Part shown: in pieces, positions 18,505 to 25,811 of the stretch
Numbering within the stretch: position 1 is the first letter of the stretch
Layout: every line of letters starts with the position of its first letter
DNA from: Candidatus Limnocylindria bacterium
GTDB lineage: Bacteria; Chloroflexota; Limnocylindria; QHBO01
DNA: 29,413 bases
Assembly (NCBI GenBank): GCA_036375035.1
Contig: DASUSP010000122.1
Coordinates: 1-29,413, forward strand
Direction: 5' to 3'
Program-made: the position numbers and the translations under genes
Notes under the pieces: generated by a model
What the model saw: only the letters and a program-made list of their open reading frames with translations
Databases searched by the model: none
What the model was told of the DNA's origin: nothing

Positions 18505-19449
18505 TCACGTAACAGGGACGAAGAGCGTCAGCATCTCGTAGACGATGTTCGCGGCGGCAACGGCCGTGATCTCGGCATGGTCGTACGCGGGAGATACCTC
18601 GACGACGTCGCACCCAACCACGTTCAGGCCTCGAATCTTCCGCAGCATCGTCACCAGCTCGCGGGAGGTCAGCCCGCCGATCTCGGGGGTTCCCGTTCCC
18701 GGCGCGTGCGCCGGGTCCAGCACGTCGATGTCCACCGACACGTACAGCGGCCGGGGACCGATGCGCGCTCGGATCTCGGCGGCGATCGCGGACGGGCCGC
18801 GCTCCGCCACGTCATCGGTGCCGAAGATCAAGAATCCCATGCCCCCGTCGTCGGCAAGGTCCCCCGCCGAGTAGAGGGAGCCACGGATCCCCACGTGGAC
18901 CGATGCCTCATGGTCCAGCAGCCCCTCCTCGGACGCCCGGCGGAAAGGGGTCCCGTGGGTATAGGGCTCGCCGAAGTAGGTGTCCCAGGTGTCGAGGTGG
19001 GCGTCGAAATGCACCAACGCCACGGGGCCGTGCTTGGCGGACACCGCGCGCAGTGCCGGCAGGGCGATGGTGTGATCACCTCCGATCGCCACGAACCGCG
19101 CCCCCGTGGCCAGGACGGCCGCCAGGCCCTGTTGTATCGAGGCGAGCGCATCCTCGATGGAGAACGGGCTCGCCGCAATGTCGCCGAGGTCCACGACCTG
19201 CAGGCTGTCGAAGGGACTGGTGCCGGAGGCGGGGTGATACGGCCGCAGCAGCCTGCTCGCCTGCCGAACTGCCGAGGGCCCGAACCGCGCACCGGGCCGG
19301 TAGGTTACGCCCGCGTCGAAGGGGACGCCGACGATCGCGACGTCGAACTCGGGCGCCTCCGCCTCCGTGGGCAGGCGGGCGAAGGTGGCCAGGCCCGCAT
19401 AGCGCGGAACCTTGGTGGCATCGGTCTGGCCGACGATCCTGCGATTCAA
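18505..19449 (-). CDS. speB: Ureohydrolase, agmatinase/guanidinobutyrase family
   Basis: [30 protein letters not shown] and [18 protein letters not shown] show a complete binuclear metal ligand set; TTG start with GGAGG upstream. The exact substrate cannot be read from sequence. Confidence 0.9.
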
Positions 19450-19464
19450 TCCTGGTGCCTCCGG

Positions 19465-20235
19465 CTACCTGAAGACGGCTCCGCCGTTGGGGCTGATCAC
19501 CTGACCGATGAAGAAGTCGCCCGCAGAGGACGCGAGCAGCACGGCGGTCTCGGCGATCTCGTCTACCCGCCCGAGACGGCCGGCGGGGATCTCCTTCTCC
19601 TTCTCGATCCACTCCGGCGCCATGTCAGCCAGGATCATGTCCGTTTCGATCGGTCCGGGCGCGATCACGTTCGCACAGATCCCGGGCGCAACCTCGTGCG
19701 CCAAGGCGTAGGTGAATGCGATGACGCCGCCCTTGGCGGCGCAGTAGTGCCCGTACCCGGCGCGCCCCTTCAGCGCCAGCTCGGACGCGATGTTGATGAT
19801 CTTGCCGACGGGCTCCGACGGGATGTGCGGAAGCGCGAACTTCGTGGTCAGGAAGACGCCGCGCAGGTCCGTCCCGATCAGCTTGTCCCATTCCTCCACG
19901 GCCATGTCGGCGATGTGGACCTCCGCGCCGATGGTCCCCGCGTTGTTGACGAGCACGTTGATCCGTCCGAACCGCTCGACGGCTTCCTCGACGGCCGCAC
20001 GGCACTCCTCCGCGTGGCTCACATCGGCGCGGATCGCGTGACCAGCGACCCCGTGCGACCGCACCCGCTCGACCACCTCCTTCGCCGCGTCTTCCCGGCT
20101 GAGGTAGGTGATCACCACCGAGGCGCCCTCACGGGCGAATGTTGTCGCGATTCCGGCACCGATCCCCCGGCTGCCGCCGGTCACCAGCGCCACCCGGCCC
20201 GCCAGCTTCCCCTGCGTCTCATGCACCGCGTTCAT
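19465..20235 (-). CDS. Classical SDR oxidoreductase (FabG-like)
   Basis: TGGSRGIG, VNNAG, NIAS, YCAAKGG (YxxxK), PGPIET. Start is ATG 20235 or GTG 20226. Confidence 0.93.
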   Translation of the reverse strand: MNAVHETQGKLAGRVALVTGGSRGIGAGIATTFAREGASVVITYLSREDAAKEVVERVRSHGVAGHAIRADVSHAEECRAAVEEAVERFGRINVLVNNAGTIGAEVHIADMAVEEWDKLIGTDLRGVFLTTKFALPHIPSEPVGKIINIASELALKGRAGYGHYCAAKGGVIAFTYALAHEVAPGICANVIAPGPIETDMILADMAPEWIEKEKEIPAGRLGRVDEIAETAVLLASSAGDFFIGQVISPNGGAVFR

Positions 20236-21094
20236 CCTCCGATCCAGTGGCCCCGTCGTCCGCCAGCAGGCTCGCCGCGAGGTGGTCCGCCCGCGCGAAG
20301 ACGACGTCCCCGCACTCGTCCGCAAAGTCGATGAATCGCTCGATGGCCCGCAGCCGCCCCGGCCGCCCGCTCAGGAACGGGTGGCAGGTGAGCACGCACA
20401 GCGATCCTGTGCTCCGCATGCCGTCAAGCTCCTCGGTCCACAGGCCGGCGACCTCGCTGGGGCGCTTGATCGTGTGGCCGAGGTCCGGCGCCGGGATGTA
20501 CATGTACTGCTCCCAGTCGTCGAGCGACCAGTGGACCGGCAGCTCGGCCACGCGCCCGCTGCCAGTCTCGAGCAGGTAGGGTCGATCGTCGTCGAACAGC
20601 GACGAGTCGTAGCGGATCCCCAGCGCGGGAAGCGCACGGAGGGTGAGCGCCGTCGTGGACCACATCGGTGCCCGATAGCCAACCGGGGACGCCCCCGCCC
20701 TGCGCAGCGCCTCCAGCCCGCGCTCCAACTCCAGGCGTTGCTCGTCATCGGAGAGCATCGTCGGCGAGCGGTGCGTGTACCCGTGCAGGCCTACCTCGTG
20801 GCCCGCCGCCAGGACGGCGACCACGGCATCGGGCCAGCGCTCCGCGACGATGCCGGGGAAGAAGAACGTCGCCGGCATGTCCCGCCGCCGCAGGAGATCC
20901 AGGATCCGGGCGAGCCCCACCCGCGGACCGTACGCCTGGTGCGACATGGTCGACAGGTGCCCGGCGTACTCGTCGCCTGCGGCCAGGATCGGGCTCTCCG
21001 CGTCGACGTCGAATGTCAGGAGGACCATTGCAGCGGCGGCGCCGCGCCACGTATCGGGCGCCGGATGGCGCGCCATGCCGTCTACGTCATGCAT
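20219..21094 (-). CDS. Carbohydrate esterase 4 / NodB-fold hydrolase, PuuE/HpPgdA-like
   Basis: LTFDVD, YGPRVGLARILDLL, ATFF, HEVGLHGYTH, GYRAP, YDSS, LDDW, CHPFLSGRP. Start is ATG 21094 or 21076. Confidence 0.9.
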   Translation of the reverse strand: MHDVDGMARHPAPDTWRGAAAAMVLLTFDVDAESPILAAGDEYAGHLSTMSHQAYGPRVGLARILDLLRRRDMPATFFFPGIVAERWPDAVVAVLAAGHEVGLHGYTHRSPTMLSDDEQRLELERGLEALRRAGASPVGYRAPMWSTTALTLRALPALGIRYDSSLFDDDRPYLLETGSGRVAELPVHWSLDDWEQYMYIPAPDLGHTIKRPSEVAGLWTEELDGMRSTGSLCVLTCHPFLSGRPGRLRAIERFIDFADECGDVVFARADHLAASLLADDGATGSEDERGA

Positions 21095-21843
21095 CGGATC
21101 TCGCCCCCGTTCGGATGCAGGACCTGGCCGTTGTAGGCACGCCCACCGTCAGGCGAGGCGAGGAAGGCGATCGTGGCCGCGATCTCGTCCGCCCGGCCGA
21201 TGCGGCCGGCCGGAATCCCCGCCGCATAGATGGCGTGCATCTCCGCGAGCGGCTTGCCGGCATCGCGCGCATCGACTTCGAGCTGCGGCGTGTCGATCAC
21301 TCCCGGTGCCACCACGCTCACGGACACGCCCTGGGGGCCGAGCTCGGCAGCGAGGGTGTGGCCCAATGCGATCAGGCCCGACTTCGAGGCCGCGTACCCG
21401 GTGGCGTTCTCCCAGCCGACGACGCCCCAGTACGACGCCACGATCACGATCCGGCCCCGTCCGGCGGTGACCATGCCCGGCACGACGCGTTCGATCAGGT
21501 GGAGGTGGCCGGTCAGGTTGACGTCCAGCTGCTGCCACCACTGCTCGACCGGCAGCTCCAGGAAGGGGGCCATCCACATCCGGGCGGCGTTGGCCACCAG
21601 GACCTCGACCGGCCCGAGCCGCGCCTGGACCTCGTCGACCATCGCACCGATCGCCCGCTCATCCGCGATGTCGCCAGGCGCCGGGAATCCCCCGGTCGCC
21701 GCGACCACTTCGCGGAGGCGTCCGTCGTCGACTCGGGCGTTGATCGCGACCCGGTAGCCGTCGCGCGCCAGGCGCTCCACGACCGCCCGACCGATTCCCT
21801 GGCCGGCCCCGGTGACCAGGGCGACGGGACCCTCACGATCCAT
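21082..21843 (-). CDS. Classical SDR oxidoreductase
   Basis: TGAGQGIG, VANAA, IVASYWG, YAASKSG, APGVIDT; strong SD (GGAGGGAG) before ATG 21843. Confidence 0.92.
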   Translation of the reverse strand: MDREGPVALVTGAGQGIGRAVVERLARDGYRVAINARVDDGRLREVVAATGGFPAPGDIADERAIGAMVDEVQARLGPVEVLVANAARMWMAPFLELPVEQWWQQLDVNLTGHLHLIERVVPGMVTAGRGRIVIVASYWGVVGWENATGYAASKSGLIALGHTLAAELGPQGVSVSVVAPGVIDTPQLEVDARDAGKPLAEMHAIYAAGIPAGRIGRADEIAATIAFLASPDGGRAYNGQVLHPNGGEIRCMT

Positions 21844-22450
21844 GCTTGTCTCCCTCCCCCTCCACGGGGGTGAAGACCTGGCCGACGTAGAAGTCCCCCT
21901 CCTGCGCCAGGAACGCCACGGTGTCGGCAACCGCGTCGCCGGTGCCCGTGGACGGAGCGACGACACAGTTCACGCGGATGCCTTGAGGCGCCATCTCGAC
22001 GGCCAGGCTCTTGGTGAAGCCGATGATGGTGCCACCGGCCGCAGCCTCGTACGGCCGCGAGGGAGCTCCGCCGGGCAGCGCTGCCCGCGGCACCAGGGTG
22101 ACCACCATTCCCCGGTGGGCCGCCACCATCCCGGGGAGCACGGCGCGGCACGCGTTCGTGACCGCGCGCAGATGGGAGTTCAGCAGCTGAGTCCAGCGCG
22201 CCCCGTCCAGACCCGTGAACTCCGCCGGGGCCGCTTCGCCCAGTCCCGTGACCAGGACCTCGATCGGCCCGATCTCGGCGGCCACCCCATGGACTGCATC
22301 CGCGATGGAGCCTCCGTCCGCGGCATCCGCGGTGAGCGGCGCCACGCTGTATCCGGCCGCCGCGAGGCGACGGGCGATGGCCGGACCGACCATCCCCGCC
22401 GCCCCGATGACAAGAGCGACAGGCCGCGCTCCCGTGCCGCCTTCGCTCAT
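21833..22450 (-). CDS. Shortened, degenerate SDR-fold protein (probable pseudoenzyme)
   Basis: SDR scaffold is recognisable (ALVIGAAGMVG, GPIEVLV, GFTKSLAVEMAPQGIRVNCV, VAFLA..GDFYVGQV), but YxxxK, the NNAG motif and the substrate loop are missing. Confidence 0.75.
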   Translation of the reverse strand: MSEGGTGARPVALVIGAAGMVGPAIARRLAAAGYSVAPLTADAADGGSIADAVHGVAAEIGPIEVLVTGLGEAAPAEFTGLDGARWTQLLNSHLRAVTNACRAVLPGMVAAHRGMVVTLVPRAALPGGAPSRPYEAAAGGTIIGFTKSLAVEMAPQGIRVNCVVAPSTGTGDAVADTVAFLAQEGDFYVGQVFTPVEGEGDKHGS

Positions 22451-23910
22451 ACGACCGCCTTCGTCTCCTTCTCAGGAACCGTCATATAGGCGACCGCACC
22501 GATGATCCCCAGGATTACGATCATGAGGATCACGCCCCAGTTCTCGTACCAGGCCAGATCCGCGTATCGCGGCCAGGCGATGTTCACCAGCTCGAAGACG
22601 AGCCACAGAGACGCGACCAGCGTGACCGCGAAGCTGAGCCGCCCGAGGTTGAACGGCCCTCGCTCGTGCCGCCGGGTGACGTGCAGGTACAGCGCCGCGA
22701 TTACCGGGAAGGCGAACGAGATGTAGAAGCCGCCGACCACGAACGAGACGAGCAGGGTGTAGATCTGCTCGGCGCCCAGGTTGACCAGCAGGAACAGCGC
22801 GGCAACGACACCGACGAACACGATCGCCCGGGCTGGCAGCTTGTGCTGATCGGTGAGTCCCTGGAAGAAGCCGTAGAACGGCACCGCGCGGTCACGGGCG
22901 AACGAGTAGAGCGTCCGCGACACCGCGGTCTGGAGCGCGACCATGCTGGCGGTGAAGCCGAGGGCGATGATCGCAAGCAGTGGCCGCGTGATCGTCTCGC
23001 CGAAGTGGTACTCCATCGTCTGGACGACCGGGTCGGCCACGTTCCCCGTCATGGCGGCATCGATGTCCGGTATCGCGAGCAGGATCGCGAAGGCGGAGAA
23101 GATCACGACCGCGCCGACGAAGCCGAGGACCACGATGATCGACCACGGGACCGACTGCTCCGGCTTCTTCACCTCTTCGGCGATCGCTCCAGATGCCTCG
23201 AAGCCCAGGAACGACCAGCCGATGAACGCCACCGCCCCGAGCCAGGCAAAGGTGAACCAGTTGAAGTCGGCCGCGCCGCTCGCCGAGGTCTCCCAGAGCA
23301 CGGAGATCGGGTTCACCTGGAACCCGACCAGCAGCACGATGCCGACAATGATCGAGGCGATGAACTCCGCCGCGATCGACAGGCTGACGAAGACCTTCAG
23401 GACCCACTGCCCGATGGTGTTGGCCAACGTGCCAAAGGCCAGGAAGCCGAACGCCATGATCACCAGGAGCGTCTTGTCGGCGTCGTCGATGCCGAGAACC
23501 GGAGCGAAGAAGCTCGCGGCGGCGAAGGCAACCGTCGACATGGCGATGGTGAGCGTCCACATGTAGGCCCAGCCGGCGAACCATGCCGGACCGGTGCCGA
23601 CCTGCTGCCGCGTCCACTGGTAGACGCCGCCCGCGAGCGGCCATCGGCTGGCGATCTCGCCGAACACGAGCGCGACGAGCATCTGCCCGCCCAGGACCAG
23701 GAAGAGCCCCCAGAAGAAGATCGGTCCGGCCGCCGCGAGGGCGAGCGCGAACATGCCGTACAGGGCGACGATCGGCGAGATATCCGCGAAGCCCAGCGCA
23801 GCGGCATGCCAGAAGCTGAACTCTCTCTTCAGCTCCTGGGTGTACCCGTACTCCTTGAGCCGTGCGGCCTCGTGATCCTCGAGAGGATCGGCACGATGCT
23901 CGGCAACCAT
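22447..23910 (-). CDS. APC-superfamily amino acid/amine permease
   Basis: 487 aa, about 12 TM; YGYTQELKREF, EIASRWPLAGGVYQW, FLGFEASGAIAEEVKKPEQSVP, SRTLYSFARD..VPF, GPFNLG. Confidence 0.92.
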   Translation of the reverse strand: MVAEHRADPLEDHEAARLKEYGYTQELKREFSFWHAAALGFADISPIVALYGMFALALAAAGPIFFWGLFLVLGGQMLVALVFGEIASRWPLAGGVYQWTRQQVGTGPAWFAGWAYMWTLTIAMSTVAFAAASFFAPVLGIDDADKTLLVIMAFGFLAFGTLANTIGQWVLKVFVSLSIAAEFIASIIVGIVLLVGFQVNPISVLWETSASGAADFNWFTFAWLGAVAFIGWSFLGFEASGAIAEEVKKPEQSVPWSIIVVLGFVGAVVIFSAFAILLAIPDIDAAMTGNVADPVVQTMEYHFGETITRPLLAIIALGFTASMVALQTAVSRTLYSFARDRAVPFYGFFQGLTDQHKLPARAIVFVGVVAALFLLVNLGAEQIYTLLVSFVVGGFYISFAFPVIAALYLHVTRRHERGPFNLGRLSFAVTLVASLWLVFELVNIAWPRYADLAWYENWGVILMIVILGIIGAVAYMTVPEKETKAVV

Positions 23911-25081: not shown

Positions 25082-25811
25082 CTAATCGCGTTTGACCACC
25101 ACGCCCCAAAGCGGTCTGATGGGCCTCCAGGTCCCAGTCGGGTCAATCACCTCCGGTGTCCATGGGCCAGCCGCGACCACCCGCGCCGGCGGGCTGGAAG
25201 CGCCCTTCAATGTCGACACCAACAACGCGTCTACCCTGCATTCGGGGGCGAGCAGTCCGGTTGACGCGAATGACCGCGCCCCTTCGTTCGGCAAGGGAGG
25301 CGAGTGCATATGTCGACGCAGACGGGGCAATCGGATGCCCGACTTCGACCAGACAGGCGCTCGGGCCGGCCGCGAGTTGGGGCACGAGCTCGCCCAGCTC
25401 ATCAGACTCGACCAGCCTGGCCGGGAGGTCAGGAGATGCCGACCTGAGCTCCGCCGCCAGTTCGACCAGCCGCACTCGGTTCTCCGACACGTGAAGCACG
25501 CCCGTCGCATCCCGGCTCAGCCATGTCCCTCCGTCGGCATCGACCAACCAGGTGCACAGACTGAGTGTCTCGTGGTACAGCGAAACAAGAGTGGGGTCGA
25601 ACGGATAGCCGACGTAGCCTGAGTTCCGGCCCGAGGCTCCGGCCGCCAGGGCTTCGCGCTCGTAAAGGGTTACGGCTGCGCCGTCGCTGGCCAAGAACGC
25701 TGCAGCGGCCGTACCGCACACTCCGCCTCCAATGACGACGAAATCTGGAGAGGTGGTGGGATTCACAGGTGCCGCATTCGATCCATAGTCGCCGATAACC
25801 CTCCGGGTCAA
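25082..25811 (-). pseudogene. FAD-dependent oxidoreductase (DAO/glycine oxidase family), frameshifted and C-terminally truncated
   Basis: FVVIGGGVCG, TLYER..LAAGASGRNSG. An extra G at about 25180-25182 shifts the conserved (A)VVAAGPW motif to another frame, which stops at 25082 after about 240 aa in total. Confidence 0.8.

Follow-up and report, generated by a model that had tools for sequence, protein, structure and literature searches.

A truncated, catalytically dead-looking short-chain dehydrogenase as a probable pseudoenzyme subunit in a Limnocylindria operon

Gene X, on the minus strand at positions 21833-22450 of the stretch analysed here, encodes a truncated and catalytically dead-looking member of the superfamily of classical short-chain dehydrogenases/reductases (SDRs). 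The stretch, hereafter the window, comprises 29,413 nucleotides (nt) of contig DASUSP010000122.1 (C122) from Candidatus Limnocylindria bacterium, a member of the Chloroflexota (GenBank assembly GCA_036375035.1), and belongs to a 2.49-Mb genome bin that is 77% complete. X lies in a minus-strand operon with the order permease, X, SDR_A, deacetylase/DUF2334 hydrolase, SDR_B and arginase-family gene. We consider X most likely to be a non-catalytic pseudoenzyme subunit that assembles with SDR_A, a reading to which we assign a probability of roughly two in three, because related organisms carry both as a single fused protein; these natural fusions are the strongest support for a complex. A first-pass annotation, made from the DNA sequence alone, had suggested that X is a pseudoenzyme subunit partnering one or both of the adjacent SDRs. 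Comparative evidence supports that suggestion and, through gene linkage and the fusions, indicates that the partner is SDR_A rather than SDR_B.

The product of X (P0002) is an intact open reading frame (ORF) of 205 amino acids (aa), from ATG to TGA, as the first-pass annotation had described. Its membership of the classical SDR superfamily follows from both sequence and fold: Pfam adh_short (PF00106) scores 84.8 bits against a cut-off of 26.6, matching residues 37-170 only, and the predicted structure finds its matches among classical SDRs. All of the degenerate motifs first read in the sequence are present. The cofactor motif IGAAGMVG (residues 15-22) follows a GxxGxxG pattern and departs from the classical TGxxxGxG; its sixth position, Met in X, is variable among orthologues. 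Residues 68-71 are TGLG where NNAG is expected, and residues 119-123 are LVPRA, which places Pro121 at the catalytic Ser position. The stretch YEAAAGG (residues 134-140) had been taken for a YxxxK motif without its Lys, a description that holds for the Lys and fails for the Tyr. Positions in alpha-F were assigned by ungapped alignment to orthologues that retain YAAAK, and since this alignment makes Glu135 the counterpart of the catalytic Tyr and Gly139 that of the Lys, both residues have been lost; Tyr134 stands one residue before the catalytic Tyr position. Carrying His93, Pro121, Glu135 and Gly139 at the positions of the Asn-Ser-Tyr-Lys tetrad, X therefore lacks the tetrad.

The two deletions that had been proposed are likewise confirmed. 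Relative to SDR_A, approximately 21 residues are missing after beta-2, where a loss of about 20 had been estimated, and the substrate loop between beta-6 and alpha-G has gone, at a cost of some 25 residues. About 12 of the beta-2 residues are missing only in X and in P0003, a relative that is 86% identical and is also 205 aa long; the deletion is not an assembly error, because it is common to both sequences. An AlphaFold2 model of X, built from a 119-sequence alignment (predicted local distance difference test score, pLDDT, 90.9; predicted template modelling score, pTM, 0.89), shows a Rossmann sheet that is one beta-alpha unit short of the normal number. The top Foldseek matches of this model are FabG, PhaB and acetoacetyl-CoA reductases, and other classical SDRs (TMq 0.85), and VIA-align superimposes it on many classical SDRs over about 190 of its 205 residues (Z 26-27, root-mean-square deviation about 2 A).

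X belongs to a well-defined family in which the loss of catalytic residues is shared. A profile search of 1.84 billion representative proteins with the X family returned 69 at E <= 1e-30. Beyond P0003, the closest relatives are P0004-P0008 (65-68% identical to X, 210-216 aa), followed by P0009, encoded in genome G004 (52%), and P0010 (48%), while longer relatives of 227-234 aa are 37-43% identical. There are 22 non-identical sequences without the catalytic Lys, all with open frames. In a maximum-likelihood (ML) tree the X family is monophyletic (98/96) with YxxxK-bearing forms at its base, and the Lys-less forms, 19 of which were in the tree, all fall in a single clade (support 100/98), within which the loop is deleted in two subclades and kept in a third. 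In the trees, the active proteins closest to X come from the syntenic loci of Rubrobacter and other Actinomycetota. The Rubrobacter proteins, about 228 aa in length, look fully competent, having TGAASGIG, VAGLD, ISSE and HYAAAK, and most of the other Actinomycetota loci that we read likewise keep Ser, Tyr and Lys at the X position. The first-pass annotation had reasoned that full-length orthologues with YxxxK would point to simple decay of this copy. Such orthologues exist only as basal members, in Rubrobacter and most other Actinomycetota loci read; they show the ancestral state of the family rather than decay. Nor is the degeneration of X private to the window, since its close and intermediate orthologues are all Lys-less with intact frames.

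Fusion-type proteins of 417-466 aa recovered in the profile search join an X-like domain to an SDR_A-like domain in the same order as the two genes occupy in the operon. P0156 (417 aa) has an N-domain that is 40% identical to X over 155 residues, with the X-type loop deletion and a degenerate alpha-F (HVAAADGALDGFTKSLA), and a C-domain that is 54% identical to SDR_A. P0162 is of P0156-like design, its C-domain being 51% identical to SDR_A, and the N-domains of P0272 and P0273 are about 54% identical to that of P0156. In each fusion YxxxK and TGxxxGIG occur once only, within the C-domain, and the N-domains are without the SDR Gly motif. P0156, P0272 and P0273 lie on contigs of 22-260 kb; since P0272 and P0273 are encoded on contigs of 22.8 and 260 kb and have diverged to about 54% N-domain identity, the fusion is a conserved architecture and not a sequencing slip. 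A tree of 51 rows places the fused N-domains within the loop-deleted clade of dead X proteins, beside the X of the window (SH-aLRT 99), and the C-domains within the SDR_A clade (98).

The predicted structure of P0156 (pLDDT 88.8, pTM 0.88) was obtained with only four sequences covering the N-domain, MAFFT having placed X sequences on the C-domain of the fusion. The only solved chains that match both of its domains are FabG4 of Mycobacterium tuberculosis (Rv0242c; 3q6i, 3v1t and 3lls) and M. smegmatis, and HMwFabG of A. baumannii (6uuv); the matches extend over about 430 columns at TMq 0.76-0.82 (TMt 0.74-0.82) and reach Z 31.2 for 326 residues aligned across residues 1-374. According to this model, which is of the fusion only, P0156 shares the two-domain arrangement of FabG4 and HMwFabG in three dimensions. 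Sequence identity between P0156 and FabG4 is 22-26%, and a FabG4-specific model was not among the 25 best NCBIfam matches shown for P0156, so that on sequence the fusions do not obviously belong to the FabG4 family.

Several long proteins from the search were not accepted as fusions. P0151 (497 aa) was discarded as its middle is an out-of-frame, Arg- and Pro-rich translation; with a Rubrobacter-type X at its start and SDR_A-like stretches at its end, it probably represents read-through of an X-SDR_A pair, frameshifted or mis-called. P0133, which has two YxxxK motifs, was set aside as a generic long SDR, as were the other long matches, most of which have two YxxxK or cofactor motifs and a few one or none. 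Separately, at locus L128 of genome G576 a P0162-type fusion (L128:1314-2688) lies downstream of a permease tail and a full-length active SDR (L128:566-1306); in G576, therefore, an active SDR coexists with a dead domain in fused form.

Where the two proteins are encoded separately, X and SDR_A are neighbours in nearly all the loci recovered. SDR_A itself (21082-21843, minus strand) is an active-looking classical SDR of 253 aa with TGAGQGIG, VNLTG, a catalytic Ser and YAASK. The order permease, X, SDR_A, deacetylase recurs in G004, in the Chloroflexota metagenome-assembled genome (MAG) at L004, which is the nearest named carrier of the operon, and on seven metagenome contigs (L084-L090). In Rubrobacter (L005-L008) the order is arginase-family gene, permease, X, SDR_A, with the deacetylase also in L005 and L006; the L008 contig ends within X, so that its downstream genes lie outside the contig. 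X is directly upstream of SDR_A in every locus with downstream DNA save L006 and L007. A check less dependent on X was made by searching 401 Actinomycetota genomes with the fusion protein, all matches but one covering only the SDR_A-like C-domain. Ten of these genomes have an SDR_A orthologue, two of them being the Rubrobacter genomes of L005 and L007, and an SDR gene stands directly upstream of it in all nine loci with upstream DNA, two of which (L119 and L120) repeat L005 and L007. The upstream gene is clearly of X type in six of the nine. L125_X and L127_X belong to the X family by the tree, yet their scores against X are no better than those against SDR_A or SDR_B, and L128_up lies outside the X clade. 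Among seven upstream genes read for motifs, five have YAAAK, L128_up has YTASK and L124 is a dead form. No further SDR_A orthologue was found in a 300-genome sample of the window's phylum; as orthologues occur in only 1 of 301 genomes sampled from that phylum and in 10 of the 401 from Actinomycetota, the operon has a rare and patchy distribution.

The behaviour of SDR_B (19465-20226, minus strand), a second active classical SDR of 253 aa from a GTG start, bears on whether X might instead act on its own as a regulator or sensor that binds nucleotides, on the model of NmrA or the atypical SDRs, or be a partner of SDR_B or another protein. The GxxGxxG pattern does resemble that of extended or atypical SDRs, residues 12-45 of X match Pfam Epimerase weakly, the Gly loop is conserved, and SDR_B shares the operon with X in the window, G004 and L004. 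The Rubrobacter loci, however, have no SDR_B, and in L085-L088 it lies at a distance of 2-3 kb while X still adjoins SDR_A, and the fusions pair X with SDR_A and not with SDR_B. X also has no DNA-binding or other partner domain, and the copy in the window is without the beta-2 segment that binds the adenine ribose. A sensor, or a partnership outside SDR_A, is unlikely on these grounds.

Constraint on the sequence separates a maintained gene from a decaying remnant that happens to be open. Decay might be suspected from the stepwise accumulation of deletions and from X being the fastest-evolving gene of the operon: between the window and G004 it is 52% identical, compared with 76-89% for neighbouring genes, and identity of orthologues to the window copy is 36-52% for X, 53-78% for SDR_A, 55-76% for the deacetylase and 73-85% for true SDR_B orthologues. 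Against this, the reading frame is kept in all 22 Lys-less orthologues, 65 columns are invariant among the nine closest sequences, the extra deletion is common to P0003, and X has a coding signature, with a third-position G+C content (GC3) of 0.84 (0.87-0.90 in neighbouring genes). Coupling is also intact on both sides, as originally observed. The X start overlaps the permease stop by 4 nt in an ATGA that suggests translational coupling (22447-22450), and its 3' end overlaps the SDR_A start by 11 nt (21833-21843; SDR_A ATG at 21843-21841), with a GGAGG Shine-Dalgarno-like run upstream of that ATG within the 3' end of X, the two genes occupying different frames. Under the GY94 codon model, log-likelihood (lnL) was -4355.05 with omega free and -4736.30 with omega = 1 (2dlnL = 762), and neutrality is rejected. 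The check by dN/dS and motif conservation that the first-pass annotation had recommended thus favours maintenance, omega = 1 being rejected and loss of the Lys being common to close and intermediate orthologues. We regard simple decay as very improbable.

Selection was judged only from this likelihood-ratio test and from dN ratios relative to SDR_A. By the NG86 method, dN/dS for X and SDR_A respectively was 0.28 and 0.13 between L004 and L084, 0.23 and 0.08 between L088 and L089, and 0.37 and 0.14 between the window and G004, whereas in three Rubrobacter pairs, in which X looks active, the values were about 0.11-0.19 and 0.12-0.14. Dead X proteins therefore accumulate non-synonymous change at two to three times the rate of SDR_A, while Rubrobacter X, which keeps YAAAK, and SDR_A change at an equal rate. 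This comparison indicates that loss of catalysis was accompanied by a two- to three-fold relaxation of constraint, not by its disappearance. The best-conserved parts of X are GDFYVG (residues 185-190), beta-6, beta-1, beta-5, alpha-F, alpha-G and the Gly loop, and conservation is lowest in the Ser loop (122-132), in residues 73-82 and where the loop was deleted. Such a pattern fits a structural role: the core is kept, together with the helices and edge strand through which subunits touch in SDR oligomers, and the loops that once faced the substrate drift.

A different question is whether X is still an enzyme, its catalysis having moved to other residues, for instance Tyr134 with His93, and some small substrate being turned over in an open site. 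Tyr134 never varies within the dead clade, and active orthologues carry His there; H93, in an S/V-H-L context, is kept even in the active-looking Rubrobacter forms; and the GAAGxxG Gly-rich loop is retained. One review also cautions that catalytic residues can migrate in apparent pseudoenzymes (PMC10211241). These features have to be set against the loss of the Lys, which positions the nicotinamide ribose and lowers the pKa of the Tyr, and for which there is no conserved replacement: within the Lys-less clade its position is A, G, T, I or V, that of the Ser is P, S or T, and that of the old Tyr is E, R, Y, Q or F. Furthermore, the substrate loop is deleted, the window copy is also without the beta-2 Asp segment, the fused N-domains have lost even the SDR Gly motif, and dN in X is two to three times that of SDR_A. 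Relocated catalysis is in our judgement improbable. As for nucleotide binding alone, the GAAGxxG loop argues for it, and deletion of the VAGxD segment in the window copy argues against it; the Asp at the end of beta-2 is present in most X relatives and deleted here.

The interpretation of X as a non-catalytic partner of SDR_A must be weighed against several points. In Rubrobacter L006 (7056-7538) and L007 (8707-9189) a 160-aa ORF separates X from SDR_A; because of this intervening ORF in two loci, and because most of the Actinomycetota X proteins that were read look competent, the ancestral pair may have been two sequential enzymes rather than a complex. X may also still bind nucleotide or keep some chemistry, given the conservation of the Gly-rich loop, of the beta-2-end Asp in most relatives, and of the invariant Tyr134. 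Synonymous sites are saturated (dS about 1; ML omega 0.02-0.04, tree length 71), which makes absolute values of omega untrustworthy. Finally, the fused N-domains are on long branches, and the 51-row tree that places them came from a quick search.

The remaining genes of the operon (18505-23910) suggest its purpose. The first gene (22447-23910, minus strand) encodes an APC-family amino-acid permease (Pfam AA_permease_2, 1.8e-45) that also matches a urea-carboxylase-system permease model, below the cut-off. Following SDR_A are the polysaccharide-deacetylase/DUF2334 (CE4) hydrolase (20219-21094, minus strand), which is weakly similar to the allantoinase PuuE, then SDR_B, and an arginase-family ureohydrolase (18505-19449, minus strand) that exceeds NCBIfam agmatinase cut-offs. 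Together, a permease like that of the urea-carboxylase system, a CE4 hydrolase resembling PuuE and an enzyme of the agmatinase family suggest that the operon breaks down a guanidino or ureido compound. In SDR_A and all of its orthologues NNAG is replaced by ANAA, the region of the catalytic Ser and Tyr is a conserved stretch rich in Trp (S-Y/E-W-G-V-I-G-W-x-N-A-T-x-Y), and the substrate loop carries TPQLEVDA; these features are signatures of the family. In L004 (11081-11980) and L084 (3328-4227) an arginase-family gene follows SDR_B on the opposite strand; it is about 50% identical to that of the window, compared with 80% in G004, and is likely a different paralogue. Elsewhere in the window, the ORF at 25143-25811 (222 aa) matches only positions 1-185 of 353 in the Pfam DAO profile and looks like a truncated flavin adenine dinucleotide (FAD) oxidoreductase; it is adjoined by a DUF885 gene.

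In the arrangement that we propose, X would be kept by virtue of assembling with SDR_A and would perform no oxidation or reduction itself. It would take the place of the second catalytic subunit in an ordinary SDR dimer or tetramer, making contact through the alpha-E/alpha-F helices and the alpha-G/beta-G edge, probably with X2A2 stoichiometry, and it would lend stability to SDR_A or render its active site complete. Together the two would serve an operon for the uptake and breakdown of a nitrogen-rich compound, of guanidino or amine type. The history would begin with an X-SDR_A pair in which X was still equipped with catalytic residues, the state seen in Rubrobacter and in most of the other Actinomycetota loci read; the Lys and Tyr would then have been lost from X, followed by the substrate loop, and subsequently, in the window lineage, by the beta-2 segment with the ribose-binding Asp, while elsewhere X became fused to SDR_A.

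Inactive SDR-like subunits and domains are known from other systems. In the ketoreductase (KR) of modular polyketide synthases, the catalytic SDR half is supported by a Rossmann-type half that is truncated and has neither cofactor nor catalytic motifs; this pseudo-KR subdomain is always fused, within a megasynthase. X appears to function like the known examples, but to have arisen separately. The first-pass annotation had drawn the comparison with BbsCD, and passages in PMC13418739 and PMC10818641, citing von Horsten et al. 2022, describe BbsC as the inactive subunit of this heterotetramer in Thauera aromatica (PDB 7pcs). Both X and BbsC have the SDR fold without a working active site, and both are encoded next to the active SDR partner that they would serve in a structural or supportive role; X has lost its catalytic residues yet is under selection. 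BbsC is of normal SDR length, whereas X is truncated to 205 aa, without the substrate loop and with one beta-alpha unit fewer; the BbsCD complex has been shown, while that of X with SDR_A is inferred. X also appears to be of separate origin, descending in the trees from active X forms, and in PDB sequence searches with X the active partner BbsD (7pcs_B) was listed at 2e-13 and 1.3e-23 while BbsC was not among the best 60 matches.

In FabG4 and HMwFabG, the 'flavodoxin-type' N-domain is non-catalytic and its helices pack against the other protomer's catalytic domain (PMC8007833, PMC6008564), and this N-domain has been likened to the structural domain of the polyketide ketoreductase PlmKR1 (PMC6008564). 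The likeness lies in a non-catalytic Rossmann-like N-domain followed by an active ketoreductase domain, both of which P0156 models onto. In the window, by contrast, X and SDR_A are separate, overlapping genes, the single-chain feature being restricted to P0156, P0272, P0273 and P0162, and the operon has a permease and a ureohydrolase where fabG4 has an HtdX context (PMC6008564). Petunia benzaldehyde synthase provides a further heterotetrameric SDR with a catalytically inactive subunit; in its alpha2beta2 assembly, which has been established by crystallography, the inactive beta subunit stabilises the complex and contributes to substrate binding (PMC13418739). That enzyme differs in being plant peroxisomal, with a full-length beta subunit, and its lineage is unrelated to X.

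Automatic annotation labels X an oxidoreductase. If X is instead a scaffold, the operon has two redox steps and not three, and SDR_A expressed alone could be insoluble or inactive. The main interest of the X family lies in the survival, within related operons, of active, dead, truncated and fused forms. We suggest, tentatively and at less than even odds, that the family may preserve every stage from a free catalytic SDR subunit to a purely structural domain: an active partner, a Lys-less form with its loop, a loop-deleted form, a form from which the beta-2 segment has also gone (as in the window), and a fused form. Should this be true, the X family would be a natural model for the origin of FabG4-type N-domains and of the pseudo-KR subdomains of polyketide synthases. 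Graded natural variants of this kind are suited to asking what a dead subunit gives to an SDR complex, and through them the origin of fused structural domains, the FabG4 N-domain among them, can also be traced.

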